A DNA stretch of 38,527 nt from a virus. Its lineage: Duplodnaviria; Heunggongvirae; Uroviricota; Caudoviricetes. The position numbers and the translations under genes were made by a program. Below are positions 1,790-38,527 of this stretch, piece after piece (position 1 is the stretch's first letter; each line of letters opens with the position of its first letter). The stretch is taken from the IMG/VR virus record IMGVR_UViG_2563366883_000008; one strand, given 5' to 3'. Under the pieces are notes generated by a model. The model was not told the DNA's origin. It ran no database searches and saw only the letters and a program-made list of their open reading frames with translations.

Positions 1790-1817
1790 CAAACCGACAG
1801 GAGAAGCTGTCGGTTTG
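1790..1817 (-). terminator. Rho-independent terminator after the 81-aa ORF
   Basis: 11-bp perfect stem caaaccgacag/ctgtcggtttg with loop gagaag, 5 nt after the stop at 1823; U-rich tail on the minus strand. Confidence 0.55.
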
Positions 1818-1822
1818 TATTG

Positions 1823-2068: not shown

Positions 2069-2103
2069 GAATATTCTCCTTTCCTTTTCTGGTTCACAAA
2101 AAA

Positions 2104-2289: not shown

Positions 2290-2318
2290 TCACCATTTTA
2301 AATAAAATGAATTACCCG

Positions 2319-4400: not shown

Positions 4401-4490
4401 CCTGTTCCTGAATAAACAGAATTATCATATCCACAGACCGATAAACGCCATTTTGCGTTAATTCAGTAAAGGCCCAACAAAGGGAGCGTC

Positions 4491-5051
4491 TTATTTTTCC
4501 GAAACGCTCGCAGGAAAATAACGATAAAGGGTTGAAAGGCCGATATCAAAAATAAGTGCCACCTGTCTTCGGCTGACACCCCCGGCCAGTAAACGCCCGA
4601 CCTGCTCGTATTGTTCCTGCGTGAGACGACGGGGTCTGCCGCCGGTTCGTCCCCTTTCACGGGCAGCTGCAAGACCAGCCCGTGTCCGTTCGACAATCAA
4701 TTCACGCTCCATTTCTGCCAGCGCACCCATTATGTGAAAAAAGAAGCGCCCCATGGGGGTTGACGTATCAATGCTGTCAGTAAGACTACGAAAATTTATC
4801 CCCTGTTGCTGTAATTCATCTGTCAGCGCAACAAGGTGGCGCATACTGCGCCCCAGCCTGTCCAGTTTCCAGACCATCAGCGTGTCACCGGGTTTTAGTT
4901 TCTTCAGTGCCCGCTTCAGTCCCGGCCGCTGTGTTGTTTTTCCGCTCATTTTATCTTCAAAAATCTGCTCACATCCTGCACATTCCAGCGCATTTCTTTG
5001 TAAACCTGTGTTCTGGTCATTTGTTGATACGCGTATATAGCCAATCAGCAT
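4491..5051 (-). CDS. gin: Gin/Hin/Cin-family serine DNA invertase (186 aa)
   Basis: N-terminal IGYIRVSTNDQN catalytic-serine motif, C-terminal HTH; adjacent to an inverted-repeat-bounded tail-fibre segment. Confidence 0.9.
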   Translation of the reverse strand: MLIGYIRVSTNDQNTGLQRNALECAGCEQIFEDKMSGKTTQRPGLKRALKKLKPGDTLMVWKLDRLGRSMRHLVALTDELQQQGINFRSLTDSIDTSTPMGRFFFHIMGALAEMERELIVERTRAGLAAARERGRTGGRPRRLTQEQYEQVGRLLAGGVSRRQVALIFDIGLSTLYRYFPASVSEK

Positions 5052-5105
5052 GTATTTACCTTCCTTAAAAAGAGGTGGAAAGGCCTTTTAAAGCAGATAT
5101 ACGGC

Positions 5106-5131
5106 ATCCCTGAAACCTCGGTTTACGGGAA
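5106..5131. other. gix-like recombination site (left)
   Basis: Reverse complement reads TTCCCGTAAACC-GA-GGTTTCAGGGAT, close to Mu gixL TTCCTGTAAACC-GA-GGTTTTGGATAA as I remember it; central dinucleotide sits at the outer edge of the inverted repeat. Confidence 0.6.
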
Positions 5132-5266
5132 ACGGTAAATAAGGCGGCGAATGCCCTGCCATCGGACGGCACCGCTGCGGCAGCGAATAAACTCGCCACC
5201 CCAAGAAATATTAATGGTGTTCCTTTCGACGGGACGCAGGATATCAGCATTACTTCAGGGATGACG
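5119..5266. repeat. Inverted repeat, left copy (148 bp, identical to reverse complement of 6396-6543)
   Basis: Compared base by base in the sequence; identity ends exactly at the gix centre on the outside and after ATGACG on the inside. Confidence 0.9.
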
Positions 5267-5500
5267 CAGTCAACCGCAGATGACCGGTATGTACAGAACG
5301 TTCAGCTTGGAGCACAGAGCTATCATTCACCCGGAGGCAATGAAATGTCATGGAATTACAGTGCGCCTTCCGGTTGTATGCTTTCCGGTATTAACGTGCA
5401 GGAAACAGGAAAAAACTCTGCCGATAACATTGGCGGGGTTTATTTCCGTCCTGTGCAGATATATATCAGTAATGCATGGCGTACAGTTTCATCTGTCTGA
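5261..5500 (+). CDS. Alternative tail-fibre C-terminal segment (S'v-like), not joined to the fibre gene in this orientation
   Basis: MTQSTADDRYVQNVQLGAQ parallels MTESTANQRYVTGVRLGAQ of the fibre C-terminus; in frame with the inverted repeat so inversion would fuse it to the constant part. Confidence 0.6.
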   Translation: MTQSTADDRYVQNVQLGAQSYHSPGGNEMSWNYSAPSGCMLSGINVQETGKNSADNIGGVYFRPVQIYISNAWRTVSSV

Positions 5501-5505
5501 TGAAA

Positions 5506-5532
5506 GAAAAAGGGTGCGATAAGCACCCTTTA
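5506..5532. terminator. Bidirectional hairpin between convergent S'v and tail-fibre assembly genes
   Basis: aaagggtgc / gcacccttt stem with loop gataa, flanked by A-run and T-run. Confidence 0.5.
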
Positions 5533-5534
5533 AG

Positions 5535-6077
5535 TTATTCAGGCTGTTCGGGCCATTTAATGGCATCAAATTCAGCTTCAGTTTTAATGGCGGATGGTTC
5601 CATTTTTTTCACCTGACTGATGTATGCCATCCATCGGGTAAGTGCGGCTCTGTCTTCATCACTGATGGTGCCCAGCTGTAATTCTGTTCTCCAGTCATTA
5701 ATTTTTTCATATGCCTGATTAAGATATAACTGGCGCATTGCTTCCAGTTTTCTTGCGTAGTTAACCGGAATACGGGAGATCACGCCATTATCAAACTTCC
5801 AGTTACCCGAAATATCAGCACCTTCAGGGAGTTCGTCGACTTCAACCACAGAGAACCCCGCAGGATACAGCGCCGAAGCGTCCTGTGATATTGAGCAGAT
5901 AATGCCGCTGTCAGGTGTTATACAAAGTTTATATTTTTTGGTGAATAATGGCAGGGACTCGTAGAAATCCTTACCATCTTCACTCTGAAAATACTGTACA
6001 TCATTACCATAGAGGGTGTTTTCCGGGTAATATCGTTTAACATTAATCAGTTGCATAAACATCACCATGTGAATCAA
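5535..6077 (-). CDS. Tail-fibre assembly protein (Mu U-like), 180 aa
   Basis: Immediately downstream of the tail-fibre gene inside the invertible segment; size and position as for Mu U/Tfa. Positional call. Confidence 0.55.
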   Translation of the reverse strand: MIHMVMFMQLINVKRYYPENTLYGNDVQYFQSEDGKDFYESLPLFTKKYKLCITPDSGIICSISQDASALYPAGFSVVEVDELPEGADISGNWKFDNGVISRIPVNYARKLEAMRQLYLNQAYEKINDWRTELQLGTISDEDRAALTRWMAYISQVKKMEPSAIKTEAEFDAIKWPEQPE

Positions 6078-6176
6078 TGATAAAAACAGGAATAATACTA
6101 TCGCTATATACGGACAGGGATTGTCTGAGATAACACATATATCAGGCGCTGCCTGCCGTACGCCATGAGCCGTTAA

Positions 6177-7073
6177 TTAAATACTTGCAGCGGATACCCA
6201 ATTCCCATTAATACAATATTGTATCTGTCTGTAATAAACACGGTCATCACCACTACGCATTTCCCAGTCTCCATCAGTCTTAAAACCGGTAATCACATTT
6301 CCTGATGACAGGGAGTAATTATATTCCAGTCCGCCGCTTAATGCCTGCGCTCCCAGTCTTACCCCTGTAACATAACGCTGATTGGCTGTTGATTCCGTCA
6401 TCCCTGAAGTAATGCTGATATCCTGCGTCCCGTCGAAAGGAACACCATTAATATTTCTTGGGGTGGCGAGTTTATTCGCTGCCGCAGCGGTGCCGTCCGA
6501 TGGCAGGGCATTCGCCGCCTTATTTACCGTTTCCCGTAAACCGACGTTATCGATAAAGGTTCCTTTGTCCGCGATATCCGCGCCATTCTGATCCTTGCGC
6601 AGATAACGGTTATCACCTTCGCTCTTGCTGTAAACATCCAGATTCTGGCGGGCCGTCGGTTTATCCGGTACATCGCCAAAATTCATGGATTTCTCCAGTG
6701 CTCCCACATCATTAGCAGCCAGGCTGTCTTTTCCTGATAATCCTCCAAGCCCAAGATGACGGCGGGCAGCAGCCTGTGCTTCTGCACCTGCATCCGCAAT
6801 CTCCTTAAGGTTGTTTTTCCGGCTGTATGCGTTTGCTGCAATGATTGCCTTAATGGCTATCACCAGCTGGTTCAGTTTTGCCTTATCCGGCTGAACCTGT
6901 CCTTCTGTCAGAATGGCAAGCAGCTCTGCCTGCACGATGTTCAGCCAGTCCTGACCTATATGGCTGATCCCTTTGCGTCCGTCACCTTCAGTAAACCATT
7001 TAACCTGCGTGCCCTGTGAGGGGGCCAGTGGTGGCATATCGGTCACACCTGAATTGTTGTCGACAAAATACAT
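6177..7073 (-). CDS. Tail-fibre protein (Mu S-like): constant part plus variable C-terminus inside the invertible segment
   Basis: Follows baseplate genes; its 3' part crosses the 148-bp inverted repeat (6396-6543) and the gix-like site. Confidence 0.8.
   Translation of the reverse strand: MYFVDNNSGVTDMPPLAPSQGTQVKWFTEGDGRKGISHIGQDWLNIVQAELLAILTEGQVQPDKAKLNQLVIAIKAIIAANAYSRKNNLKEIADAGAEAQAAARRHLGLGGLSGKDSLAANDVGALEKSMNFGDVPDKPTARQNLDVYSKSEGDNRYLRKDQNGADIADKGTFIDNVGLRETVNKAANALPSDGTAAAANKLATPRNINGVPFDGTQDISITSGMTESTANQRYVTGVRLGAQALSGGLEYNYSLSSGNVITGFKTDGDWEMRSGDDRVYYRQIQYCINGNWVSAASI
6396..6543. repeat. Inverted repeat, right copy (148 bp)
   Basis: Reverse complement identical to 5119-5266; lies inside the tail-fibre coding sequence. 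Confidence 0.9.
6531..6556. other. gix-like recombination site (right)
   Basis: TTCCCGTAAACC-GA-CGTTATCGATAA; inner half-site identical to the left site, outer half-site diverged. Confidence 0.6.
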
Positions 7074-7630
7074 TACTCCGTCTCCTCATGACTGTTTTCG
7101 TACAGATATAAAAACGTCTGCCAGGCTGGCTTATAACGGTTTAAAATGCACTCCAGCGCACTTGCATCATAAATTCGCAGTGGCGTAAGAATATCGTCCA
7201 GTACATTCATGTGACGGTATCCAACCGCTGTCTTCACTGTCACAATACTGATCCATTGTGATTCCGGTGATGGCTGGATATCTATTTCATAACCAAACTC
7301 TGCCGCAAACCGGATATAAAATTCACGGTTAAGAGAGGGTTTCATCCGGTATTTATTCCCGGCATAACGCTGACGCTCCTGAATGGTTGCGCCGGTCATA
7401 TCACATTCCGGTAACCCCAGATAACGCTCCCAGTCTTCCAGCAGCAGACGGGATGAATCAGGAAAACGTTCTGCCAGCATCTGGTTGCCGGTCCAGGAAA
7501 CACGCTCCGTGGAATGACTGAGGCCCAGGCACAAAGCCGCAAGAACGGATGACGGCCGCTTATCCCATACCAGCCCGTCAGGCAGCAACTGCAACAGGGC
7601 GCGCTGATGCGGGGTCAGGGTTACAGCCAT
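7073..7630 (-). CDS. Baseplate/tail protein (Mu gp48-like), 185 aa
   Basis: Position between baseplate J-like gene and tail fibre; 1-nt ATGA overlap with the fibre gene. Confidence 0.65.
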   Translation of the reverse strand: MAVTLTPHQRALLQLLPDGLVWDKRPSSVLAALCLGLSHSTERVSWTGNQMLAERFPDSSRLLLEDWERYLGLPECDMTGATIQERQRYAGNKYRMKPSLNREFYIRFAAEFGYEIDIQPSPESQWISIVTVKTAVGYRHMNVLDDILTPLRIYDASALECILNRYKPAWQTFLYLYENSHEETE

Positions 7631-26715: not shown

Positions 26716-27020
26716 TGCGTTTTTTTCCTTACAGCCTGCTCCAGCAGCAGTTCGTTCTGATAGGAGACAGAGCGGAGCGTGGCGTTCGTGGTTTTCAGTT
26801 CACCCCGCAGGGTCACGATTTCCACATTCAGACGGTTGACCTCGGCTTCTGTCGGCAGTGACGACAGGCGGGTTTCCACCTTCTCAACGCGGTCGGAGAG
26901 TTTTTCAAAGGCCTCGCGGGGGACAAACGTTTTGCGCATCAGCGCCATGAATATCCCGCCAGCGGTTGCCGTCGCCGAAAGGATCGGCACAACATAATCT
27001 TTAACGATGCTGACCCACAT
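26712..27020 (-). CDS. Small membrane protein with coiled-coil (Mu gp25 position), 102 aa
   Basis: N-terminal hydrophobic helix (VVPILSATATAGGIFMALM) followed by a predicted coiled-coil. Confidence 0.45.
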   Translation of the reverse strand: MWVSIVKDYVVPILSATATAGGIFMALMRKTFVPREAFEKLSDRVEKVETRLSSLPTEAEVNRLNVEIVTLRGELKTTNATLRSVSYQNELLLEQAVRKKTQ

Positions 27021-27228
27021 GACGGGCCTCCATGATGTTCTGGCAGTTCACACAACGGATGGCATCCGGCACAGCAACAAGACGTGCGGCGGGGATCTCT
27101 CCGCCACAGTCTGCGCAGACACGTCTGCCCGGAGCATCCATTGCCCGGCACTTACGTGTCAGCCGGTTACAAAGGGCGCGTTCTGATCCCCGCTCCATCA
27201 CAGCCTGAGCACGATCTGAATCATCCAT
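27001..27228 (-). CDS. TraR/DksA-family C4 zinc-finger protein, 75 aa
   Basis: CADCGGEIP...RCVNCQ four-cysteine motif near the C-terminus. Confidence 0.7.
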   Translation of the reverse strand: MDDSDRAQAVMERGSERALCNRLTRKCRAMDAPGRRVCADCGGEIPAARLVAVPDAIRCVNCQNIMEARHVGQHR

Positions 27229-27237
27229 AGCTTTTCC

Positions 27238-27609
27238 TTACTTCGTCTTTCCTGCCGGAACAGCAGGCGTTCCGGCCATATCAGTAAATTCATGTTGTCG
27301 CCGCGCCTCCAGACGACGAATACTGGCCTTGTCCACGTTGCAGTTCTTGATCACCGCCAGCAGTTGCAGGTTGTAAGTGACCGATGCCCCAAACGTGAAC
27401 GGCTCCGGCGCAGGAGGCACCAGGCAGTCAGCCAGCCATTCAGCGGGGATCGGCACCGGCTTCACAGGCACGTATTTCACAGACGGCCCGGCGCACCCGA
27501 TCAGCCACATCATCAGGAACAGGGGCAGAGGCCGCAGGCACTGCTGCCAGCGACCGGCGGACAACGCTCTGCTGCCCCTCGCTGTGCTGAATGTTCTGTT
27601 GTTTTTCAT
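27238..27609 (-). CDS. Putative o-spanin (outer-membrane lipoprotein), start at internal ATG
   Basis: Lipobox-like LIGC after a hydrophobic stretch; Pro-rich mature region; embedded in another frame of the i-spanin gene and extending past it. Confidence 0.5.
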   Translation of the reverse strand: MKNNRTFSTARGSRALSAGRWQQCLRPLPLFLMMWLIGCAGPSVKYVPVKPVPIPAEWLADCLVPPAPEPFTFGASVTYNLQLLAVIKNCNVDKASIRRLEARRQHEFTDMAGTPAVPAGKTK

Positions 27610-27940
27610 TCGTGGCCGCCTCACTGATTTGTGAAATGAGTTGCAGGGTGCGTTGCTGGTTTGCCAGCACCAGACGGGCTTCGTCCCGTTCGCGCACAAG
27701 CACATGATTATTGTCCTCAAGGCGCTGCGTCTTCTGGTGCATTCCCCATACCACGGCAGCCAGCACGCTCATCACCCCCAGCGCCGCCATACAGCCTCCG
27801 GCAATCAGGGCCGGTAAGGGATTATTCACCGCAGCCACAGCACACCCCGCAGCAGCACAACGGCACACAGCAGCGCAATCATGAGCGGTCGCCAGAAGCG
27901 GTTCAGACTTTCGGCAAATCGTAGCGACATAACCATTCAT
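27440..27940 (-). CDS. Putative i-spanin (start at ATG 27938-27940; the ORF-track start is a TTG)
   Basis: Hydrophobic N-terminal segment then coiled-coil-like region; overlaps the endolysin 3' end. Confidence 0.5.
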   Translation of the reverse strand: MNGYVATICRKSEPLLATAHDCAAVCRCAAAGCAVAAVNNPLPALIAGGCMAALGVMSVLAAVVWGMHQKTQRLEDNNHVLVRERDEARLVLANQQRTLQLISQISEAATNEKQQNIQHSEGQQSVVRRSLAAVPAASAPVPDDVADRVRRAVCEIRACEAGADPR

Positions 27941-28403
27941 CCGCCGAACGGCGGGCCTCAAGACCGGGGAGTTTCACCCCCTTCGAATAAATCCAGCGGA
28001 TGTACTGCTTACAGGACGCGGGCATCTGCCCGGCATTGATCAGGCGCAGAAGCGTGGAGTTGCGGAAGTTCGTTTCACCAGCCCAGAAGATCCACGAAGC
28101 CAGCGCCACCGTCTGACCACGGGTAAGCGGCACCTGAACACGCCGATCAATGGCCGCAAAGGCCCATTTCATGTCCTTTTCCAGTAGTTCCAGGCATTCT
28201 TCATCCGTCAGGGTCATACCCGGTTTCACATCCGGGCCGGTATGGCCGTAACAGATGGTTGGTGTACCGGTGGGATCGATATACGTGGAGTTTTCTTTCC
28301 CTTCCCAGTAACCGGTGTAATGCGTGGTAATGGTGAACGTCCCGGCACCGGCCAGAACAAGGGCAATCAGCTTTTTACGCAGTGGTGCGGGGAGTTTTGG
28401 CAT
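27903..28403 (-). CDS. Endolysin, T4-lysozyme-like (GH24), probably SAR-type, 166 aa
   Basis: N-terminal weakly hydrophobic Gly/Ala-rich segment (LIALVLAGAGTFTITT); YWEGKENSTYIDPTGTPTICYGHT E-D-T catalytic block. Confidence 0.85.
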   Translation of the reverse strand: MPKLPAPLRKKLIALVLAGAGTFTITTHYTGYWEGKENSTYIDPTGTPTICYGHTGPDVKPGMTLTDEECLELLEKDMKWAFAAIDRRVQVPLTRGQTVALASWIFWAGETNFRNSTLLRLINAGQMPASCKQYIRWIYSKGVKLPGLEARRSADEWLCRYDLPKV

Positions 28404-28474
28404 TGTTACGCTGTCTCATGATGTTCTCTGAGTCAGCGTAACGGTGAAGGAAAGGCGGCAGGCTTTGCGGAATA

Positions 28475-28897
28475 TCAGAAAAGTGGCGGTTGCGTTCTTG
28501 CCAGATGCAGACGGCGCTGTTCGCGTATGACGGTATAAATCTGGGTTTCTGACATCCTGTAATGGCGGCGCAGGGTTTCAATTTTTTCGCCCTGGCTCCA
28601 GCGGGAAAAAATCTCATTATTGCGCAGTTCGGTGAAAAGGGATTCACCGACCGGGAGATAATAACCACGCCCGCCCATGTACCCGGCCTGTGCGGCCGCA
28701 ACTTTACGGGCAAGCATTCCTGCCTGAGCAGGTTCAATCCCCTGACGGTGCAGTTCAGCACTGATCACATCAACCAGGTCCCGCAGCGTGCCGGGCCAGT
28801 TCTTTTTCAGCTCATCATCAGGAATGTCATCCAGACGGTCAATCAGCGCGTGCAGCTGTTCGCTGTCACCAAACATGCTCATCTGTGTTTCAGCCAT
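28475..28897 (-). CDS. Mor/C-family transcriptional activator of middle/late genes, 140 aa
   Basis: C-terminal HTH region and QPPLF terminus resemble Mu Mor as I recall it; directly upstream of the lysis genes. Cannot say whether it is Mor or C. Confidence 0.75.
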   Translation of the reverse strand: MAETQMSMFGDSEQLHALIDRLDDIPDDELKKNWPGTLRDLVDVISAELHRQGIEPAQAGMLARKVAAAQAGYMGGRGYYLPVGESLFTELRNNEIFSRWSQGEKIETLRRHYRMSETQIYTVIREQRRLHLARTQPPLF

Positions 28898-28939
28898 ACC
28901 CGCCTCCGGTCATCATTACACAGGGCAAGTTTAAAATAA

Positions 28940-28963
28940 AAATCCCGCGCTGTGGCGGGATTT
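28940..28963. terminator. Terminator hairpin, copy 1
   Basis: 9-bp stem aaatcccgc/gcgggattt, loop gctgtg; A-run before and T-run after, strong in minus-strand sense. Confidence 0.6.
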
Positions 28964-29237
28964 AGAGGCGCTGTAAATCATAACCCGAAATGAGCTGTGT
29001 ATTTATTGATCATTTTCCGGTGTAACTATATGATAAAGATCGTTTTTATTTTTAAAAATACAAACCCTGAAGGAGTTTTTCTTATCAAAAAGCTTGTGCA
29101 TATTGCGGGTTATTGTTGTTTCATCAACATGAAAACCAATTATCCCAACTCTTAAAGCACACCAGGCTTGCTCCAGTGCAAAAACAAATAATTTCAGTCT
29201 GCCTGACAGCGTTCCACCGGAATAAAGGAAGATATCC

Positions 29238-29660
29238 ATGAAACAACCTCCATCTTTGCTTTTATCGTGCCCACCAGAACTGGCCCATGAACTCAATGAT
29301 CTGGCGAAAGAGTATAAACTTACAAATCATAATATAGAAGCAGCAACACTTAGTGCTGCCGGAAGCGATATTGTATTGATCGTTCTGGCCGCAGCTTCAT
29401 GCGATGGGTTCTGGCAGGCATTAGCCAGTATGTTTCAGACGTGGTTACATCGTAAACCAACAAAACAAACACCCCCGGAAAAGAAAGTTATTCGTAGCGT
29501 CATTGTTCGTAGCTGGGAACACTATCAGGAGACAACTAAACAAACTGAATTTTATAACTTTGATGCTGATGAGCTGGCTAAATTGATAGCGTTATATGAA
29601 AAACCAGATGAAACAATTGGTTGCATAATCCCGTCAGAAACGGAAATTCAGGAAAAATAA
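29238..29660 (+). CDS. Hypothetical protein (140 aa), opposite-strand moron gene
   Basis: AGGAAG RBS; hydrophobic segment DIVLIVLAAASCDGFWQALASMF; AT-rich; stop immediately followed by hairpin copy 2. Confidence 0.6.
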   Translation: MKQPPSLLLSCPPELAHELNDLAKEYKLTNHNIEAATLSAAGSDIVLIVLAAASCDGFWQALASMFQTWLHRKPTKQTPPEKKVIRSVIVRSWEHYQETTKQTEFYNFDADELAKLIALYEKPDETIGCIIPSETEIQEK

Positions 29661-29683
29661 AATCCCGCACTGTGGCGGGATTT
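29660..29683. terminator. Bidirectional terminator hairpin, copy 2
   Basis: aaatcccgc-actgtg-gcgggattt, one loop mismatch versus copy 1; sits between the convergent stops of gemA (29687) and the moron gene (29660). Confidence 0.65.
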
Positions 29684-29686
29684 GGG

Positions 29687-30196
29687 TTAACAGGGGAATG
29701 ATTTTTCATACAGCCTGCAAACGCGCTCATAACTCATCACTGCACGCTCCGACATATCCAGGGCTGCCAGCATTTTGCGGCGGTGCCAGCGTTTGAGACG
29801 CTCCAGCACATCAGAGGCCAGCTCGGGGTGTTGCTCCAGCCACTGCCAGTTAGCCACACCTTCGCCGCCGTTCTGCGCGGCCGTCTGCGATTGCACCCAG
29901 CGGTTAAGGGCCGTTTCCGCACCATCAGAAATAAAGCCCTGCCGGTGCATCACTTTCCAGATGGCGCGAATTTTGGCGGTCACCGTACCCGGCTTTAAGG
30001 CCCGGTTAACCGGTTTCTGACGCACTTTAAAACCGCGTTTTTTGAAAACATCCAGTACGCGGGATAACTCATCCGGTGACATATCCCGGCAACTGGCTTT
30101 ACCGGTGGCTGCCAGCAGTGCGGATGTATAGGTTTCATCATCCAGAGCAAGCTCGCGTTTTGCCACATGAATGGCAGATATCAGTTTTCCTCTCAT
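29687..30196 (-). CDS. gemA: GemA-like regulatory protein (Mu gp16 family), 169 aa
   Basis: ISAIHVAKRELALDDETYTSALLAATGKAS... resembles the Mu gp16/GemA family; last gene of the early operon. Confidence 0.75.
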   Translation of the reverse strand: MRGKLISAIHVAKRELALDDETYTSALLAATGKASCRDMSPDELSRVLDVFKKRGFKVRQKPVNRALKPGTVTAKIRAIWKVMHRQGFISDGAETALNRWVQSQTAAQNGGEGVANWQWLEQHPELASDVLERLKRWHRRKMLAALDMSERAVMSYERVCRLYEKSFPC

Positions 30197-30504
30197 ACCG
30201 TATTTACCTTTTTACGGACATGGAAAGCCTTTTCTGGCTCATTCCACCGGATATGATGCGTTGGCGGAATAATCATTATGTGCCAGCCATCTCTGGTTGT
30301 TATTCGGCAGAAAAACTCACCGCTGTATAACACAATGGCCTGCTGAATAAGCGCATCCGCAGCCAGTTCAAGCAGATATCTTTTATCAAAAAGGCTGATA
30401 ATTTTCCGGCATAACCACCGGGTGATAACAAATGCGCCGAAAAACGATGTGATATATAAACACCAGAACAGCAGAGAAATATTGTCCGTTATTTGCTCAT
30501 CCAT
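30193..30504 (-). CDS. Hypothetical membrane protein, 103 aa
   Basis: N-terminal hydrophobic helix; AT-rich accessory region. Confidence 0.45.
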   Translation of the reverse strand: MDEQITDNISLLFWCLYITSFFGAFVITRWLCRKIISLFDKRYLLELAADALIQQAIVLYSGEFFCRITTRDGWHIMIIPPTHHIRWNEPEKAFHVRKKVNTV

Positions 30505-30829
30505 TGTGTATCTCCCGTAATTCCGGTAAAGCCGAAATATGGCACCAGTGCGTCACCTGTCCATCCTCATCTTCAAGGCAGGCTCCGGTTTCTTCATCAA
30601 CAAAAAAACCTTCATACCCGATATGGCCGATGCGCAGCTCCTGTCGGTGACCGTACTGAACAATCAGTACAACAGCCTCCATATCAGGCGGGAAAGCATC
30701 ATTCAGTGAATGCCAGGGATAACCGCGCAAATCCCCGAAATAAACCCCGGTCAGGGTTCCGCCACAGACCGGCATCCCGGCGGCACATACCAGAGGTTCG
30801 TCTGATTCAACAAATAAGGTCGTTATCAT
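30497..30829 (-). CDS. Hypothetical protein, 110 aa
   Basis: ORF in tight overlapping array; no recognised motif. Confidence 0.5.
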   Translation of the reverse strand: MITTLFVESDEPLVCAAGMPVCGGTLTGVYFGDLRGYPWHSLNDAFPPDMEAVVLIVQYGHRQELRIGHIGYEGFFVDEETGACLEDEDGQVTHWCHISALPELREIHNG

Positions 30830-31377
30830 GGCGTTAACTCCCGTAATACAGCGTCCCCGGCAGTCCGGCGATGGTGATAAATAAAATTCACCGTACTCTC
30901 GGATAATTCAAATTTCTCGCCTATTTCCCGGAAGGTAAGACGTCGTGGTGATTCAGCATCCCGTAATTCACGAATAAGATGAACATCATCGTCAGGTATA
31001 CGGGTGAAGGGCAGCAATTCTCCGTATTTTTTCATGCTTACGCCAATATATCGCGCCCGATTGTGGACAGAATCCCGGTCTCGCCCCAGATATTCTCCTA
31101 TTTGCTTACCGGTCATCGTTCTGGCATTTTTTCGGATAAATTTATCTTCATCATGTTTAAATCTTGGACGTTTGCATTTGAGCAACTCCGGGTAAGTACC
31201 GCGTAATAAAACAATCCGGTTATGTACACCCCAGAAACTTCTTTTTACCCTGACAGCAATATTCTTAACCGGGGTGGATGGATAAAGCGCAATCAGCAGC
31301 GCATCTTCTTCAGGTGTCCACGCACGGACATGAGCAGGTGCCTGACCTTTTCGCCCCATGGGTTGTAAAATCATCAT
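30826..31377 (-). CDS. Hypothetical protein with two HTH-like segments (SANT/Myb-like WTPEEDALL motif), 183 aa
   Basis: WTPEEDALLIALYP and two later HTH-like stretches (TGKQIGEYLGRDRDSV; FREIGEKFELSESTV). Confidence 0.5.
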   Translation of the reverse strand: MMILQPMGRKGQAPAHVRAWTPEEDALLIALYPSTPVKNIAVRVKRSFWGVHNRIVLLRGTYPELLKCKRPRFKHDEDKFIRKNARTMTGKQIGEYLGRDRDSVHNRARYIGVSMKKYGELLPFTRIPDDDVHLIRELRDAESPRRLTFREIGEKFELSESTVNFIYHHRRTAGDAVLRELTP

Positions 31378-31380
31378 ACA

Positions 31381-31896
31381 TCACCCCCTGACTCGCTTTT
31401 CAGCAGCATAAAACTCATCAGACAGAATTTCGGTCATTTTCTGATTTGCGGGTTTTACGCCGCACTCAAGGTAAATCACATCGTCAACGCAGAACCACTT
31501 CACAGGGCCAAACATGATTGCCGAGAAATCAATACCCAGCCAGAACAACAGGGCATCGGTTCTGGCATACGTGACGGGCGAATATTCACGCCACAGAATG
31601 TTCAGTTCATCAGAGGCAACACGCAGGGTTTTAGGGATACGTGATGTGCGCGGCGTACAGCTCCAGCCATTCGACGCAGTTGGTTTTCGCCATAAGTCGC
31701 GATGAAAAGGATATTTGTCATCCATAAAGCGCAGCCCCTTAAAACAAAAGCCACTGATACTGAATTCAAATACCGACCGGCACGCAACATTCAGCACGGC
31801 CTCAAGGCGTTTCGCCTCATCTTTTACCGTCTGGCAGTCCTGCTGGTATTTTTGCCACGCAGCCAGCGCGGCAGGGTTTGATGTTTTAAAGAACAT
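31381..31896 (-). CDS. Hypothetical protein, 171 aa
   Basis: ORF in the early accessory array; no recognised motif. Confidence 0.5.
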   Translation of the reverse strand: MFFKTSNPAALAAWQKYQQDCQTVKDEAKRLEAVLNVACRSVFEFSISGFCFKGLRFMDDKYPFHRDLWRKPTASNGWSCTPRTSRIPKTLRVASDELNILWREYSPVTYARTDALLFWLGIDFSAIMFGPVKWFCVDDVIYLECGVKPANQKMTEILSDEFYAAEKRVRG

Positions 31897-32429
31897 TACT
31901 CTACCTCCGCAGAAATCGCGGCAGGCGCAGCCGTCCGGTCAACAATCAGGTAACGCAGAACATGTTCGGTGATATTCCAGCCGCTTAAACCGCAGATAAT
32001 GACGCCCAGGCGAATGTCGATATACGCCATCACAAACTGGGGCACGCCTTCTTTCATGGCCTGCTCATCAACTTCAGCCACCACATAAACGGTTTCACAG
32101 GTCAGAACGCCCTGAGCAAATTCCCACGCCATCGACGGAATATCATGCCCCTCAATCCACGGCAGGGATTTTCTGAAGCTGCACCACTGAACATCATCAG
32201 CCGCACCTTCCTGGCTGCATTTGCGACGAACCGGCTGCACCGGGCGGGGACGCGGAATATCATAAAAACCGTTACGGTCCGTCAGCACACCGGCATCGAC
32301 CGCATCACGCAGAAAATAAACCATGGAGGATAGCGGCATATTCATTTTTTCTGCCAGAGAACGACTGGTCAGACGGCCAGAAAAACGCAGCCAGCTTTTA
32401 ACCCCTTCAAGCACTTTTGCATCAATCAT
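31896..32429 (-). CDS. Hypothetical protein with N-terminal winged-helix-like region, 177 aa
   Basis: SLAEKMNMPLSSMVYFLRDAVDAGVL HTH-like segment; 1-nt overlap with the downstream gene. Confidence 0.5.
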   Translation of the reverse strand: MIDAKVLEGVKSWLRFSGRLTSRSLAEKMNMPLSSMVYFLRDAVDAGVLTDRNGFYDIPRPRPVQPVRRKCSQEGAADDVQWCSFRKSLPWIEGHDIPSMAWEFAQGVLTCETVYVVAEVDEQAMKEGVPQFVMAYIDIRLGVIICGLSGWNITEHVLRYLIVDRTAAPAAISAEVE

Positions 32430-32432
32430 GAA

Positions 32433-33023
32433 TTATTCCTCCGTTATTGCGATGAATTCGGAATGCTTGATTGCCATCAATGACGGATGCAGCTTTTCAG
32501 GTGAAAAGGCATTATCTGATTCACCGACAGGAATACGAACCACAACAGCCCCTTTGTCGCCATAGAACCCGGCAGAAGAGCACGCCATAACTGTGCGGCC
32601 GTTGCTGACACCAAAAACCTCAAAATAGCAGTCCAGTTTATTAACCATCCAGGTACTGAATGACGGAAGCTGTTTTAACTTCTCGTTTAAGATATTCAGT
32701 GCTTTGTTCAGTTTTTTTCCCTCTCGGAATCTGCGGTCGGGCTTAACTGAAAATAAAACGCGGCCATCTTCATCAAATTTATCAGACAGCACCCGCTTAT
32801 TTCTTCCGACATCAACATCCTCATGAACCAGTATTGATGTGACAAAAATATGCCCATAACACCAGAAGTAAAGGTATCCTTTAGCTCTATGATTACTGAG
32901 AAAATCATCAATCAATTTCTTGCGCTCCCTGCCAGCGCAATCAAGCCATTCCCTGTGATAATGACGGGAATCGCGCTCATTCATTTTAAAATAACGATAT
33001 TTTATACTCATGATATGCCTCAT
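32433..33023 (-). CDS. Hypothetical protein, 196 aa
   Basis: AT-rich ORF immediately after gam; no recognised motif. Confidence 0.5.
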   Translation of the reverse strand: MRHIMSIKYRYFKMNERDSRHYHREWLDCAGRERKKLIDDFLSNHRAKGYLYFWCYGHIFVTSILVHEDVDVGRNKRVLSDKFDEDGRVLFSVKPDRRFREGKKLNKALNILNEKLKQLPSFSTWMVNKLDCYFEVFGVSNGRTVMACSSAGFYGDKGAVVVRIPVGESDNAFSPEKLHPSLMAIKHSEFIAITEE

Positions 33024-33095
33024 TCAGGCGCGAGCAGTCCCCTGACGCAAGCGCCATAATTAAAACGATGTGATATTTAAAGATTTAATGCGGTG

Positions 33096-33626
33096 TTATT
33101 TATTCAGTCCGGCGTCCTGTTCAAAAGGCTCGACATGAAAACTTTCAGCGCCTTTATTCACCTTAATACCAGCAATCCCTTTCACCGCATCCGGCTCTGC
33201 CAGGACAGCTTGCTTATTCACTTCCTCTTTCGTGCGGATGAAGCGCTCAAGCCCCATACGACGCAGCATTTCAATCACACCTTCCACATCACGACTGACG
33301 CTGCATGATGGATTTCCCAGCCGCCATGACACCGTTCCGGTGGTCAGATTGGCAGTTTTGGTTTCGCCGCCGTTCGTCAGCTCATTGCGGTTGGTTTTAC
33401 ACCAGTCATGAATCCCCTTAAAAAGCACTTTGATTTCTTTTTTAAGGTTTTCAATCTGTGGCGTATAACGGGCGGTGATTTCTGCCACTTCATCATTCAT
33501 TGCCGTTTCCAGGCGCAGCGCCTCTCGCTGAATATCGCCCAGGGTGCGGATATCGCGGCTGACCTCTTCACGGGTCTGCGGTGCCGCCTCTGCTGCGGCC
33601 TTTAATTTTGTAACGCGTTTTGCCAT
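33096..33626 (-). CDS. gam: Gam-like host-nuclease inhibitor / DNA-end-binding protein, 176 aa
   Basis: Strong resemblance to Mu Gam as I recall it (LETAMNDEVAEIT...TANLTTGTVSWR...FIRTKEE). Confidence 0.85.
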   Translation of the reverse strand: MAKRVTKLKAAAEAAPQTREEVSRDIRTLGDIQREALRLETAMNDEVAEITARYTPQIENLKKEIKVLFKGIHDWCKTNRNELTNGGETKTANLTTGTVSWRLGNPSCSVSRDVEGVIEMLRRMGLERFIRTKEEVNKQAVLAEPDAVKGIAGIKVNKGAESFHVEPFEQDAGLNK

Positions 33627-33637
33627 TTTGTTTTTCC

Positions 33638-33931
33638 TTATTGCAATGTGCCTGATGCTTTATGCACGCGGTGGCGTTTAATGACGGCATCCGCCCCAAA
33701 AGCCTGTACAGAGGCCTGAAATTCCGCTGAGAGAAACTGAATAATTGCAGGACTGTGATACTGGAGAATACTTGCATAAACATCACAGAGTGACGTCGGG
33801 CTGTTATCCGTATCACGTTCTGTTTTCACATCCACTCCAATCTTTTCATGCACTTCAACACTGTCATTGCCTGCCGGTTTTTCGTCATGCGAAACATGCT
33901 CAAATTCAAAAATAACGCGTACTTTGCTCAT
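33638..33931 (-). CDS. Hypothetical small protein, paralogue 2 (start at MSKVRVIFEF)
   Basis: N-terminus parallels the adjacent upstream ORF; tandem duplication. Confidence 0.45.
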   Translation of the reverse strand: MSKVRVIFEFEHVSHDEKPAGNDSVEVHEKIGVDVKTERDTDNSPTSLCDVYASILQYHSPAIIQFLSAEFQASVQAFGADAVIKRHRVHKASGTLQ

Positions 33932-33935
33932 GGAA

Positions 33936-34208
33936 TTACCCCTGTTGATTAAATTCATTACTGTCAATAACCCCGGTAGTCATGCCCCTGTCTTTCATGA
34001 ATGCACTGGCTTTCATTGCCACAAGCTCTGCGAAGTTTCTGCTTTCTGCCAGCATAACCACCCCAAAAATCATGGCAGGTCCATCACCTTTCTGCTTTAT
34101 CCCGGTTGAACGTATGTCCAGACTTACCCCCATGCGCACTGTTCCATCCGCGTTTTTATGGATAACGTGCTCCTTGTATTCGAAAATAATGCGTACGACT
34201 TTACTCAT
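33936..34208 (-). CDS. Hypothetical small protein, paralogue 1 (start at MSKVVRIIFEY)
   Basis: N-terminus parallels the adjacent downstream ORF. Confidence 0.45.
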   Translation of the reverse strand: MSKVVRIIFEYKEHVIHKNADGTVRMGVSLDIRSTGIKQKGDGPAMIFGVVMLAESRNFAELVAMKASAFMKDRGMTTGVIDSNEFNQQG

Positions 34209-34282
34209 CCTCTGGTCCTCGTTTTGTTCGGATAACTGACCCGGCGTCTGACCTGATGACAGAGCCGAACCATGAAGCAACT

Positions 34283-34513
34283 TCATACTTCCCAGTAAAC
34301 CGTGCAGCCGCTGATGCGGGTGGCTTTTACACGGCGGCGCAGGCCGTTGGTCTTAACGGTGATTTCAATTTCCTCTCCAGTCCCCTGAACCTTGCTTAGC
34401 GGCGGCGTGGTTTTCAGTGCAAAGCGTTGCGGGTAGCGTTTGCTGCGCTCCAGTACCGCACCGGCAAGTTCGGTCAGTCGACGGGCGTTATTCAGTGAAT
34501 CAAACAAATTCAT
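34283..34513 (-). CDS. Hypothetical protein, 76 aa
   Basis: ORF in the early array; overlapping start/stop with neighbours. Confidence 0.4.
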   Translation of the reverse strand: MNLFDSLNNARRLTELAGAVLERSKRYPQRFALKTTPPLSKVQGTGEEIEITVKTNGLRRRVKATRISGCTVYWEV

Positions 34514-34919
34514 AGGTGAACTCCGGTTGTATCAGTAATGGATTCATGCGCAATGCAGCCAGCTCTGACAGGAAGCCTCGATTAACTTTACCCATCCCCG
34601 GAATTTTTCGAGTTTCGCCACGCATGATTGCACGAAGAATGGAGTAACCGTGTCGCCACCCCTGGCGATAATCATCCATAATCAGAAAACCAAAGCGCAG
34701 GCTTTCCCATACATCCACATCAAAGCATTCATGATTAAAACGGCGTCTGATGGAATCAAGTTGCATGTCTGCATACCACTGATACAGGTCTATATACAGA
34801 AAACACACACCATCACCGTCCATCAATTCATAGATATAATCACAAACCTCCCCGTCATCGACGTTAAACTCTCGAAAGCTGTGGAGAACATTGATTTCCT
34901 GCTGTATCTGCATTTTCAT
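34500..34919 (-). CDS. Hypothetical protein, 139 aa
   Basis: AT-rich early-region ORF; no recognised motif. Confidence 0.5.
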   Translation of the reverse strand: MKMQIQQEINVLHSFREFNVDDGEVCDYIYELMDGDGVCFLYIDLYQWYADMQLDSIRRRFNHECFDVDVWESLRFGFLIMDDYRQGWRHGYSILRAIMRGETRKIPGMGKVNRGFLSELAALRMNPLLIQPEFTYEFV

Positions 34920-34931
34920 ATAACCTCTCGT

Positions 34932-35159
34932 TTAACTAACCCGTCTTGCACCGATAAAGCGACAAATATTGCTGTAAGCTTCTTTCGCACCTTCACGATC
35001 AAGTCCTGCCGATATTGCCATTCGGGTGCGATCATTAAATTCAAAGAGTAAATCGCCACATTCTTCACTGTCAGACATGGAGACTGCTTTGACGTTATCG
35101 AAATTCACCAGGTAAAAGCGTCCGTAAATATCAGGAATATTAAATACAGCCATAATCAC
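34932..35159 (-). CDS. Hypothetical small protein at the Mu kil position, 75 aa
   Basis: First gene after B, overlapping the B stop; position and size match Mu kil. Not sequence-verified. Confidence 0.4.
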   Translation of the reverse strand: MIMAVFNIPDIYGRFYLVNFDNVKAVSMSDSEECGDLLFEFNDRTRMAISAGLDREGAKEAYSNICRFIGARRVS

Positions 35160-36088
35160 ACCTGCGAGAGTAATTCAGGGTTGGTGTAAACCTCTTTAAA
35201 GGCCGCATTAATATGTTTTTCTGTCAGCGCCGCGCCTTCACCGCTGGCTGTGAGCCACGCCTGGTTAAGCGTATGTGTCAGAACACGTAATGCTCCCGGT
35301 TTTTCAGCAATAGCCTGCATGACAGCCAGCTCGGCCTCACCACTGATACCCCATGCCCTGGCAATAGCCAGCACATCCGCCTTTTTAGCCCTGCGAAGTT
35401 GTTTTGTACGGGCAAGACGGCTGAACAGGCGCGATAAATCATCAAAGGCGCGGCGTCCACCTTTAAACAGTCCGCGCGGGTTACCAATAAGCACCATCCC
35501 GATCCCCGTGGCGTCCTGAATTGCCCGGAGTTGCTCCAGACCGTCAATACCAAGATGATCCGCCTCATCCACAATCACCAGTCCGCGCGTTCCCATCAGG
35601 CGACGGCGGATGGCGCGGGATAATGCCCCTTTGTTCGCGCGGGTGTAATCAATCCCCAGCGCATCGGCCAGCTCCAGCAGACACTCCGTGACGCTGGAAT
35701 GCGCGGGAGACAGGGTGATCATCCAGGTGTTTGGTTGCTCCTGGCAGTAATTACGGGCGGTGGCCGTTTTACCCACACCCGGTACGCCCACAATAACGTT
35801 AATACAGCCCATCAGACGAACCGCCTGAAACAGTGCGCGCAGCTCCTGGACTGTCTGCGTTTCCACAAACTGCGGCGGTTCCGGCAGTGCGCTTTGTTTA
35901 TTCCAGTTCTCATACCAGGAGCGCAGGGAAGCAGCCACAGCAGCGTTATCGCCTTTATATTTTCCCTTACGGAAAGCCGATAATGTGCCGTCGGAAATTC
36001 CCGCCTCTCTGGCGATGGCATACTGCGTCAGTACGCCGCCATCAATAAGTTCATCAATGGTCTTGATTACATCGTTAATATCAGTCAT
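35156..36088 (-). CDS. B: Transposition ATPase B (MuB-like, AAA+), 310 aa
   Basis: N-terminal HTH, Walker A GVPGVGKT, Walker B VIVDEADHL; follows the transposase. Confidence 0.85.
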   Translation of the reverse strand: MTDINDVIKTIDELIDGGVLTQYAIAREAGISDGTLSAFRKGKYKGDNAAVAASLRSWYENWNKQSALPEPPQFVETQTVQELRALFQAVRLMGCINVIVGVPGVGKTATARNYCQEQPNTWMITLSPAHSSVTECLLELADALGIDYTRANKGALSRAIRRRLMGTRGLVIVDEADHLGIDGLEQLRAIQDATGIGMVLIGNPRGLFKGGRRAFDDLSRLFSRLARTKQLRRAKKADVLAIARAWGISGEAELAVMQAIAEKPGALRVLTHTLNQAWLTASGEGAALTEKHINAAFKEVYTNPELLSQV

Positions 36089-36126
36089 ATTATTAACCTC
36101 TCATTTGATACCTTGTTTAATCAAAT

Positions 36127-36159
36127 AACCTGAGTCGCCGCTCGGGTTATTTTTTTATT
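36127..36159. terminator. Hairpin plus T-run in the A-B intergenic region
   Basis: aacctgag/ctcgggtt stem (one G-U) with loop tcgccg, followed on the plus strand by atttttttatt; on the minus strand it lies between the A stop and the B RBS. Confidence 0.35.
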
Positions 36160-38250
36160 TCAGGCCAGCGGGTCATTTTCTTTTAATTTCGCTTCGAGCA
36201 ACTGCAATCCCCGCTGGAAATTACGCTCGTATTCTTCATCAGGCTCATCATCAACGGCAGGTTGCTGAACGGCCACCGTATTACCTACCGGGCGATAGAT
36301 GTTTTCCAGCCAGGGCTCTTGCGGCTTGTGCTCCAGCACGTTGACCACCTCATCCTCGGCATCACGGATTTTTTCCTCTGCACGTTTACGCATGCCTTTA
36401 AGGCGTTGCTGCTGTTTGTAGTATTCCGCGCTGACCGGGAAGGCTTCGCGTTTATTGCCGTCCCATACCGCCTCGCAAATCACGCTGCCATCCAGGCGAC
36501 GCACGGTAATTCGTTCGGCATCATGAATGTCATAGCTGATAAGCACCTTGCGGCCATGCTCGTCACGCAGCTCGGGCGCGTAGTAAATATTATTCAGCCA
36601 GCGTATTTCACAGCGTCTTACAGGGCGTTCCACCATCGGCCGGAACATATCCCGCAGCTCAACATCGGACAGCCATTCAATTTCAGTGTCCTCTTCCGCC
36701 AGGCGTTTTTTTCTGAACTCCGCCGGGCTGTAATGTTTCCCGTTCGGCTTCATGGGTAATTCATCGTGCGGCCGGTTGTTGTACCACTCAACACCGTCAC
36801 GAATGGCATCAATCAGTTCAGACCAGGACGGTAAATCACGCATCGCTGACTGCTGCCGGGCGTTCAGCCGTTTGCCCTGTTGCAGGGCAGTAAATGCCGA
36901 GCGTAAATCGCGGTTGGTTTTGCGTAACGTCTCGCGATCTGCACCTTTCCCGAAATAGGTGCGGTATTTACGGGCTATGCGCATCGGTAATGTGCGGTTA
37001 AGCCGTTCGATAATGCCTCGTCCCTGCGGATTACCGGCAATCCCGGTCGGGTGATTAATCCCCAGTCGCGGCAGTATCCCCACAACCTCCTTATCCAGGA
37101 TGTCGGCGGTTTCCCCGGAGCCGTTATCCGAGTAATACAGAAACGGTTTGCCGTGATGGCGAATGCCGTGCTGTATGGCTCCGGCTACGGCGAAAACATT
37201 TTCAGCCAGGTCAAGGCTCCAGCCCACCACAAAGCGCGTGCCACCGTCGATAACAAAGGTCACTTCCGGTGCAAATGGCCGACCGTGAACCGGGTGTGCG
37301 CATTTCAGCTTCATGCCGTGACCGTCACCAATCCAGACATAATTCACCGGCATTTTTGACCAGTCGCGGCGCGTGAATCCCTCAAGCTGGCGGTATTCAC
37401 TGCCGGTCACCCGGCCTTTTTGTTTCACCACTTCCGGCAGTTTCTTCATTGCGCGGCGAATGGTGTCATAAGACGGCATGATATCGAGCATATAAGGCTC
37501 ATCAGCGTGCCGGTGCTGCCATTCAGCGACAAAATCCTCGTAAGCCTCGGTCATTGGTCGACCGTTTGACTGGCGATACTGCGCCAGAAACTCGGGCAGC
37601 CAGTTAATATCTTCGGCTTTTATTTCCTGGCGCTTACCCGGTGCCAGCAAAAGCAGGCGTTCAGCGGCGTTCTGCGCCTTGTTAAAGGCTGCAATCCAGC
37701 GTTTCAGCGTGATTTCACTCAACGCGCGGCTGTTTCCCTTTTTGGCGTTCGCCGTCTCAACCATTGCCACAATGCGCTCGTCCAGTTGCGAACGTGCCAG
37801 GTTGTCAACGATAAACCGGATAGCCTTCGCGCAGCTGAAACCGGGTTGTTGCGCGACTTTCATCACTTCGCTGACGATCGCGATTCGTGCATCAGCCACC
37901 TGGCGCTGGTTTTCAGTCAGGGCATTAAGGCGTTCAACCATCAGTTGTGGTGATCCGCGATATGCCTCCACCGCATCAACCACGGCAGGCGAGCGTCTGG
38001 CCTTTGTCACCACCGGAGCCGGTGATTCATCGGCTTTTTGCGTCATCAGTTGAAGGGCATAACGTTCACGCAATACTTGTTGCGCGCCAGAAGGCAAACA
38101 ATCGATATTAAATTCGATTGCTTTTGTCCCCTTACGTTTGCGTAACATGGCTGCATTTCCCGCAGCTGCTTTTGTGAGTCGATGGCGAATGTTATGTTCC
38201 ATCATTGGTAAATCAGGAAGACCAACACATTCTTTTGCTGTTACCCACAT
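36160..38250 (-). CDS. A: DDE transposase A (MuA-like), 696 aa
   Basis: Size, position between ner and B, central DDE-type core (VWIGDGHGMKL region). Confidence 0.9.
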   Translation of the reverse strand: MWVTAKECVGLPDLPMMEHNIRHRLTKAAAGNAAMLRKRKGTKAIEFNIDCLPSGAQQVLRERYALQLMTQKADESPAPVVTKARRSPAVVDAVEAYRGSPQLMVERLNALTENQRQVADARIAIVSEVMKVAQQPGFSCAKAIRFIVDNLARSQLDERIVAMVETANAKKGNSRALSEITLKRWIAAFNKAQNAAERLLLLAPGKRQEIKAEDINWLPEFLAQYRQSNGRPMTEAYEDFVAEWQHRHADEPYMLDIMPSYDTIRRAMKKLPEVVKQKGRVTGSEYRQLEGFTRRDWSKMPVNYVWIGDGHGMKLKCAHPVHGRPFAPEVTFVIDGGTRFVVGWSLDLAENVFAVAGAIQHGIRHHGKPFLYYSDNGSGETADILDKEVVGILPRLGINHPTGIAGNPQGRGIIERLNRTLPMRIARKYRTYFGKGADRETLRKTNRDLRSAFTALQQGKRLNARQQSAMRDLPSWSELIDAIRDGVEWYNNRPHDELPMKPNGKHYSPAEFRKKRLAEEDTEIEWLSDVELRDMFRPMVERPVRRCEIRWLNNIYYAPELRDEHGRKVLISYDIHDAERITVRRLDGSVICEAVWDGNKREAFPVSAEYYKQQQRLKGMRKRAEEKIRDAEDEVVNVLEHKPQEPWLENIYRPVGNTVAVQQPAVDDEPDEEYERNFQRGLQLLEAKLKENDPLA

Positions 38251-38260
38251 ACATCCCCCA

Positions 38261-38527
38261 TCAAGCCACTTCTCTGGCGTCCACCTGGTATCTGCTGGGC
38301 CAGATTACAGCAGGTTCAACCCCTATTTTTTCGGCGATGGCGGCTTCGTATTTACGGCACTGGCGGTAAAACACATTGCGCATTGATCCGCTTTTTAATC
38401 CTAACTCCCTTTCCAGTTCAGGGAGGTCTGTGCCTTTGTTTTCAAGGGCTGCATATACCGCTTTAGCAGACCAGTCACACCCCTCTCGAACAAACAAATT
38501 ATTCGATGCTTGTCTGGATACCCTCAT
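38261..38527 (-). CDS. ner: Ner-like DNA-binding regulator, 88 aa; start codon at the window edge
   Basis: PAVIWPSRYQ C-terminal motif typical of the Ner/Nlp family; immediately upstream of the transposase. Confidence 0.8.
   Translation of the reverse strand: MRVSRQASNNLFVREGCDWSAKAVYAALENKGTDLPELERELGLKSGSMRNVFYRQCRKYEAAIAEKIGVEPAVIWPSRYQVDAREVA

Follow-up and report, generated by a model that had tools for sequence, protein, structure and literature searches.

The stretch considered here (the window) is the 38,527-nucleotide DNA of IMG/VR virus record IMGVR_UViG_2563366883_000008 (Caudoviricetes), and the subject is an array of six genes, O1 to O6, at positions 30193-33023 of its minus strand. 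On the basis of the open reading frame (ORF) listing and of Pfam and PHROG family scans, the window is a Mu-like transposable prophage of Escherichia coli lying on the minus strand, where the gene order is that of Mu: ner, A, B, kil, gam, the array, gemA, mor and lysozyme. An earlier reading made from the letters alone (the sequence-only reading) had taken the array for accessory genes of a Mu-type early operon that lie between gam and gemA, and the gene order agrees with this. The six minus-strand ORFs it described, of 103, 110, 183, 171, 177 and 196 amino acids (aa) from O1 to O6, are exactly those of the ORF listing. Read along the minus strand, the array and its immediate neighbours are as follows.

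gam, 33096-33626, minus strand: Mu Gam-like DNA-end-binding protein (Pfam Phage_Mu_Gam, 2.1e-39; 55% identity to Mu Gam).
gam-O6 spacer, 33024-33095, minus strand: carries a conserved 15-mer at 33062-33076.
O6, 32433-33023, minus strand: member of the DUF5420 family, with a longest ORF of 196 aa; variable slot A, directly after gam.
O5, 31896-32429, minus strand: orthologue of Mu gp11, with a highly conserved N-terminal part of ~56 aa, a variable linker and a Gp11_C domain.
O4, 31381-31896, minus strand: orthologue of Mu gp12, family PF26885.
O3, 30826-31377, minus strand: putative DNA-binding protein with three tandem helix-turn-helix (HTH)/Myb-like repeats, related to Mu gp9/E8.
O2, 30497-30829, minus strand: protein of 110 aa (phrog_6925, 9.5e-51).
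O1, 30193-30504, minus strand: predicted single-pass membrane protein of 103 aa (phrog_17269, 5e-33); variable slot before gemA.
gemA, 29687-30196, minus strand: GemA protein (Pfam GemA, 1.3e-29; 47% identity to Mu gp16).

The array is a conserved core, O5, O4 and O3, with hypervariable slots on either side, one holding O6 and the other O2 and O1. This emerges from a comparison of 39 IMG/VR loci that share O4 and three annotated E. coli genomes, together with Salmonella and SfMu-like relatives; a genome-contig scan gave three loci only. The sequence-only reading had treated all six genes as accessory, which comparison with the equivalent intervals of Mu-like genomes bears out for the slots and not for the core. 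The order within the E. coli lineage is constant: gam, slot A, gp11, gp12, O3, slot B, gemA, slot D, mor. Three states of slot A occur: empty (149 bp), occupied by a DUF5420 gene of the O6 type (670 bp), or occupied by a DUF5420 allele that is only 23% identical (647 bp; E 6e-9). Slot B, between O3 and gemA, ranges from 633 to 1497 bp and falls into at least seven length classes with at least eight small gene families; these are O2, the O1 alleles and at least six others, some of which are homologous to Mu gp13 or gp14 while others encode a 61-aa membrane peptide or Cys-rich mini-proteins. The content of the O6, O2 and O1 slots differs even between prophages whose identity outside them exceeds 90%, and this presence/absence polymorphism suggests that the three genes are dispensable. 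Mu-type early regions are less conserved than late regions (PMC4553209), and the mosaic seen here agrees with this.

The six ORFs are real genes under purifying selection, as shown by family matches and by low ratios of non-synonymous to synonymous divergence (dN/dS) at saturated synonymous divergence. All six match PHROG families (E 5e-33 to 1.7e-100) and all are annotated in RefSeq relatives. Against Salmonella relatives dN/dS is 0.05-0.29 where dS can be estimated; synonymous divergence is saturated for the five ORFs concerned, O1 having no Salmonella counterpart, and saturation precludes an estimate for O3 and mostly for O6. That some of these might be chance open frames could be suspected from the short lengths, the overlaps and the lack of functional annotation. 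However, six PHROG matches at E 5e-33 or better, the RefSeq annotation, the purifying selection and, for O1, constraint within the lineage are decisive, and the suspicion is already refuted.

The genes are tightly packed, as had been described: all junctions are 3-nt gaps or overlaps of 1-8 nt. From O6 to gemA they are a 3-nt gap, a 1-nt overlap, a 3-nt gap, and overlaps of 4, 8 and 4 nt, the last being that of the O1 stop with the gemA start. A Shine-Dalgarno-like purine run precedes five of the six ORFs, O6 having none. The start of O6 is probably the fifth codon, at 33011, which would give a product of 192 aa as in homologues and RefSeq. No terminator-like site is present on the minus strand within 30193-33023, and promoter-like matches in the array are at chance level, no commoner than in shuffled sequence. 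Because the junctions overlap or are 3 nt apart and there is no internal terminator, the array most likely belongs to one polycistronic message with ner, A, B, kil and gam, which would be made from the early promoter right on infection or induction.

AT-richness relative to the flanks had also been noted. The array has a G+C (GC) content of 0.474, which is indeed below that of gam (0.510) and gemA (0.547), but the whole semi-essential early (SEE) region is at 0.481 and the B-gam block at 0.462, so the property is common to the region and not particular to the array. The array lies at the 15th percentile among windows of equal size, the late region is at 0.575, and the gam-gemA interval of Mu itself is at 0.50. 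By gene the values are 0.423 for O6, 0.426 for O1, 0.460 for O3, 0.494 for O4, 0.511 for O2 and 0.528 for O5. One might regard the array as a moron block, AT-rich and gained by horizontal transfer, that does not belong to the phage backbone and is expressed independently of the early operon. Its GC content set against that of the late region and of the flanks (0.51-0.55) would fit, as would the fact that the lowest-GC genes, O6 and O1 (0.42-0.43), are variable ones. Nevertheless, the same composition extends across the SEE region and is approached in the Mu interval, the genes are coupled at their junctions along the early strand, without above-chance signs of a separate promoter or terminator, and gp11 and gp12 are ancestral to the group. 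In addition, a true moron-like cassette nearby, between gemA and mor, looks different: it is on the opposite strand, has a GC content of 0.39 and is flanked by duplicated hairpins. Composition and synteny together largely refute the island explanation, which is very improbable and is rejected here.

None of the products had been thought to resemble a known protein. This does not hold for four of them: O5 corresponds to gp11, O4 to gp12, O3 is related to gp9/E8 and O6 belongs to DUF5420. Three of the genes have Mu counterparts, and all six fall in catalogued phage families. It had been pointed out that homology to characterised Mu housekeeping proteins would tell against an accessory role; Mu homologues have been found, yet these are themselves uncharacterised.

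Over 172 aa, O5 shares 66% identity with Mu Mup11, and it scores well above threshold with Pfam Gp11_C (PF25754; 139.1 bits against 27, 5.9e-41), as well as matching phrog_1949 (1.7e-100). All related loci that were examined have a counterpart. O4 shares 55% identity with Mu Mup12 over 169 aa and matches phrog_2314 (1e-83); its assignment to PF26885 comes from precomputed annotation of close homologues, O4 itself not having been scored directly against the model. O6 is a DUF5420 protein above threshold (PF17457; 51.2 bits against 26), with a match to phrog_2260 (4e-37), and its C-terminal KHSEFIAITEE is unchanged across close homologues.

The DUF5420 and gp12 families are, on profile evidence, distant homologues that make up one superfamily. 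An exhaustive profile search of DUF5420 gave 148 representatives at 50% identity, nearly all of 170-210 aa; domain fusions were sought among them and almost all proved to be single-domain. Pfam DUF5420 is also matched by 109 of 135 superfamily representatives. In most members an N-terminal 'RYF' strand is conserved, together with a 'EIKKSEFIALTEE' helix at the C-terminus. When the deep DUF5420 alignment is compared with the gp12 alignment by hhalign, the two match over nearly full length (probability 90.8%, E 1.2e-6, 154 columns), and the C-terminal end of gp12, 'EILSDEFYAAEK', aligns to the DUF5420 motif without a gap. Direct homology between O6 and O4 is seen only with the deep alignment; BLASTP and shallow profile-profile comparison showed nothing. 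The predicted O4 model has the element order of the O6 model, i.e. a strand, a long helix, hairpins, two helices, hairpins, a strand and a C-terminal helix, and in a BFVD structure search the seven best neighbours of O4 were all within the top fifteen of O6. On the strength of the deep hhalign match, the shared layout of the models and the gap-free C-terminal motif, O6 and O4 are distant paralogues placed on either side of gp11 (O5).

In every locus examined gp11 adjoins at least one gene of the DUF5420/gp12 superfamily. In Mu it is gp12 only, in seven SfMu-like loci DUF5420 only, and both are present in locus L063, in the Salmonella prophages and in this window. In a FluMu-like contig DUF5420 lies between gam and GemA; two neighbours there were considered as partners and set aside, a 185-aa HI_1489_N protein that is not related to gp11 and a 125-aa protein, directly downstream of DUF5420, that is not related to gp12. 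In temperate elements that are not transposable, DUF5420 follows YqaJ-RecT or stands beside an HTH_17 regulator, a C5 methylase and a primase; in further cases a CII regulator, an integrase, an exonuclease and a methylase are close by, and one copy is two genes from a Gad1-like fragment. All of these settings are of the early replication, recombination or accessory type. The copy near Gad1 is in locus L071, from an Izemoplasma metagenome-assembled genome: a 107-aa ORF at 6826-7149, two genes downstream of DUF5420, matches part of Gad1 (PF25705, Gabija anti-defence protein; 3.5e-17), namely profile positions 159-202 of 293. The link between DUF5420 and gp12, the constant pairing with gp11 and the lack of a solved fold for the superfamily are modest new points.

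O3 matches phrog_323 (1.7e-57), and the stretch from residue 66 to residue 168 aligns to Mu gp9/E8 from end to end (30% identity, E 5e-10). Sub-threshold Pfam matches to HTH_11, AsnC-type and sigma70_r4 domains are found at residues 131-167, and to Myb at 19-31. Homologues of 42-58% identity carry Myb_DNA-binding (PF00249) and Sigma70_r4 (PF04545) domains in precomputed Pfam annotation that gives no thresholds. Internal repeats are weak by simple alignment (z ~2); the three-repeat model rests on the separate HTH hits and the gp9 alignment, and by this model O3 has one extra, N-terminal Myb-like repeat relative to Mu gp9. Two alleles of O3 occur in the lineage, at ~70% and >89% identity. The sequence-only reading had seen HTH-like segments in two products, and O3 is the one for which this is upheld, by the gp9 alignment and the domains of its homologues.

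O2 and O1 have no Pfam, NCBIfam, PADLOC or PDB relative. The occurrences of O2 that were found are all in Mu-like prophages of E. coli and Salmonella, and some relatives lack it; in cultured phage records it is confined to Mu-like inserts of two Shiga toxin (Stx) phages. It is 81-84% identical in amino-acid sequence between E. coli and Salmonella prophages, its neighbours being at 47-64%. The proportion of synonymous differences (pS) is 0.61-0.70, as saturated as in the neighbours, while the non-synonymous proportion (pN) is only 0.10, and the similarity therefore reflects constraint and not recent transfer. O2 is the most constrained gene of the array, with dN/dS of 0.05-0.09 against 0.08-0.21 for protein B. 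Two possible relationships were considered and dropped: a likeness to DUF551, suggested by a W..LP ... THW pattern, gave no Pfam match at E up to 0.1, and a relation to the Gp11_C domain is not supported. Searches by tblastn returned only E ~1 matches to small hypothetical proteins of Salmonella siphophages.

O1 was found only in enterobacterial Mu-like prophages. The N-terminal transmembrane helix that had been ascribed to one product is present here, with a Kyte-Doolittle 19-residue mean of 2.09 at residues 9-27. From the charge distribution, acidic at the N-terminus and basic behind the helix, the C-terminal domain is predicted to be cytoplasmic. Alleles are 100, 87 and 50% identical, and other relatives lack the gene. 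Between the 50% alleles, residues 12-34, i.e. the helix and the basic patch, are invariant despite ~9 synonymous differences, and the C-terminal ~65 residues diverge. The constraint on O2 and on the O1 helix is unusual and can be counted as a modest new point.

An exact 15-mer, ATATCACATCGTTTT on the minus strand, occurs twice in the window (33062-33076 and 30441-30455), with none expected from shuffled sequences. One copy follows the gam stop at the edge of slot A and the other is within the invariant helix codons of O1; both positions are kept in relatives regardless of the content of slot A. The 15-mer could be a recombination boundary or a candidate binding site.

The Mu semi-essential region has genetically defined functions, among them arm and cim. 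In the Mu map gp11 to gp14 and an antisense gp15 lie between gam (Mup10) and gemA (Mup16). The sequence-only reading had only a few small genes in this interval of Mu, which understates it, as there are five and two of them encode 176 aa. The array shares with the Mu SEE region its position, strand and operon context, the orthology of O5 and O4 with gp11 and gp12, and a similar GC content, below that of late genes; gp13- and gp14-like genes are found in relatives of this prophage, in the O2/O1 slot. By contrast, DUF5420, O2 and O1 are missing in Mu, the antisense gp15 is missing here, and the gp9-like gene of Mu is upstream of gam with two HTH repeats, whereas O3 is downstream of gp12 with a predicted three. 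Shigella phage SfMu and SfMu-like prophages resemble the present locus in that gam is followed directly by a DUF5420 gene and then by gp11, but their DUF5420 proteins are only 24-28% identical to O6, and most of the loci have no gp12, O3, O2 or O1. No usable literature on DUF5420, Mup11-15 or arm/cim was found.

We favour, at a probability of about 0.7, the view that the array is an ordinary mosaic semi-essential early segment, in which a core of DNA-binding or DNA-transaction helper proteins would be joined to swappable host-interaction genes; these functions are inferred. The array would be translated from the early transcript. The core would act on DNA, with O3, and probably the N-terminus of O5, as the parts that bind it. 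O5 may work with a member of the DUF5420/gp12 superfamily, since gp11 always adjoins at least one such gene. As DUF5420 genes outside Mu-like phages adjoin recombination or replication genes, the most likely role of the core is to adjust DNA transactions of phage or host, or else expression, in replicative transposition, which would correspond to unassigned functions known from the genetics of the SEE region of Mu. Those in the slots, O6, O2 and O1, would be exchangeable host-interaction factors: O2 appears constrained in the manner of a protein that fits a conserved partner, and O1 would be membrane-anchored, with the helix as its constrained part.

Several points weigh against this view. The six genes and their Mu homologues are functionally uncharacterised, so that the roles are deduced, and co-transcription is likewise judged from gene spacing. 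O3 is below the Pfam gathering threshold for every HTH family (best scores 19-21 bits, cut-offs 24-27). O5, the second product said to be HTH-like, has no Pfam HTH match, and a PDB profile search with gp11 gave nothing. The predicted model of O6 matches no solved fold and gives no biochemical hint, and that of O4 is moderately confident (predicted local distance difference test score, pLDDT, 70.8). PDB sequence searches with O3, O6, O5 and O2 gave chance matches or none. It should also be said that the synteny of DUF5420 with recombination and replication genes would fit a DNA-transaction helper and a counter-defence protein equally.

The alternative, towards which the sequence-only reading leaned, is an island devoted mainly to counter-defence or host takeover, whose products would each inhibit, right after induction, a restriction, abortive-infection or other immune function of the host, or a host pathway. 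The closest published parallel is the accessory regions of enterobacteriophages (Silas et al., bioRxiv 10.1101/2023.04.06.535777), where conserved flanks surround slots that vary between close relatives and where the genes are small, early-expressed and non-essential, as is predicted for the array genes. The O6, O2 and O1 slots vary in just this manner, but they alone do so; O5, O4 and O3 are conserved from Mu to the Salmonella prophages and are thus not fast-turnover cargo. The same authors place the Mu early gene E6/Mup07 (gnarl2), from the same region of Mu, among host-modifying accessory genes, and suggest that it inhibits O-antigen-modifying enzymes. None of the six genes is in the main text of that paper (its supplementary gene lists were not searched). 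The array adjoins Gam, a known nuclease inhibitor; distant DUF5420 genes are near the Gad1-like fragment, DNA methylases and a weak Lar match; and the very low dN/dS of O2 would fit an inhibitor locked onto a conserved host target. On the other side, none of the six has a PADLOC or anti-defence Pfam match: the PADLOC models, which are of defence and not anti-defence systems, gave only a chance-level homing-endonuclease match for O3 (0.028), named anti-defence Pfam families (Gad1, Ocr, ArdA, Lar etc.) gave none at E up to 0.1, and an NCBIfam scan of the six gave nothing meaningful. A predicted multi-HTH binder such as O3 is more typical of a regulator. We consider it unlikely for the array at large. 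For the slot genes anti-defence is a live rival, though one we would put forward tentatively, and the host-takeover or anti-defence guess of the sequence-only reading was reasonable for half of the genes.

A related arrangement, in general terms, is that of the Mu-like phages of Pseudomonas with their regions of genomic plasticity, for which the abstract of PMC4378225 gives a conserved core genome and an accessory genome; in sequence they are related to the present genes through Gam only.

More speculatively, and a little less probable again than counter-defence, gp11 and a DUF5420/gp12 protein might form a conserved two-protein module, based on a fold without a solved relative, that acts at DNA ends or replication intermediates with Gam or RecT-type proteins, either aiding recombination and transposition or blunting a host defence that senses those proteins. 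Independently of this, O2 might bind tightly to some conserved protein of enterobacteria and inhibit it, and O1 might be a membrane factor with a helix that targets a host membrane protein.

By these results the targets for the Mu semi-essential functions are narrowed to the conserved gp11 and gp12/DUF5420 pair, the gp9-like DNA binder and two unusually constrained small accessory proteins. Once DUF5420 is joined to gp12, two Pfam families labelled 'unknown' become a single phage superfamily, of which there are at least 148 representatives at 50% identity, and one structural or biochemical study of it would inform on many temperate phages. In other respects the locus is unremarkable and represents a type of genome region that is already known.

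The nearest public sequences to the window are E. coli prophages, with matches in 232 of 5426 complete E. coli genomes and best identities of 95-99%. The prophage thus occurs in ~4% of complete E. coli genomes, many of them of Shiga toxin-producing E. coli. Close matches in cultured phage records (~93% identity) are found only as Mu-like insertions within two Stx-converting phages. The remaining genes that define the Mu order, from the ORF listing and family scans, are these.

ner, 38261-38527, minus strand.
Transposase A, 36160-38250, minus strand.
Transposition protein B, 35156-36088, minus strand.
mor, 28475-28897, minus strand.

Five small ORFs lie between B and gam. One of them, of 76 aa at 34283-34513, is a homologue of the septation inhibitor Kil (phrog_2679, 9.5e-39) and overlaps both of its neighbours. 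An ORF of 139 aa at 34500-34919, between B and kil, is present in some related prophages only and has no Pfam or PHROG match; it is another variable slot of the early region. In the Salmonella Mu-like prophages L053-L059, which are otherwise collinear in the early region, kil and DUF5420 are ~1 kb apart, and tblastn detected no Gam homologue at the expected gam position. A non-homologous replacement of gam is possible there. An Rfam scan of 27000-38527 found no RNA family.

The genes gemA and mor are separated by 793 bp in this prophage and by 76 bp in most relatives (positions 28933-29683). About 700 bp of this stretch is a low-GC insert (0.39) flanked by a 31-nt direct repeat, each copy of which is a terminator-like hairpin with a T-run (28933-28963 and 29653-29683). 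It contains an antisense ORF of 140 aa (29238-29660, plus strand) and one of 97 aa on the minus strand, neither with a Pfam or PHROG match. By its layout the insert looks like a moron cassette placed at the gemA terminator. At the other end of the window, positions 1-7500 have a GC content of 0.46 against 0.575 for 7500-28900, and we assume that tail-fibre or right-end prophage genes are located there.

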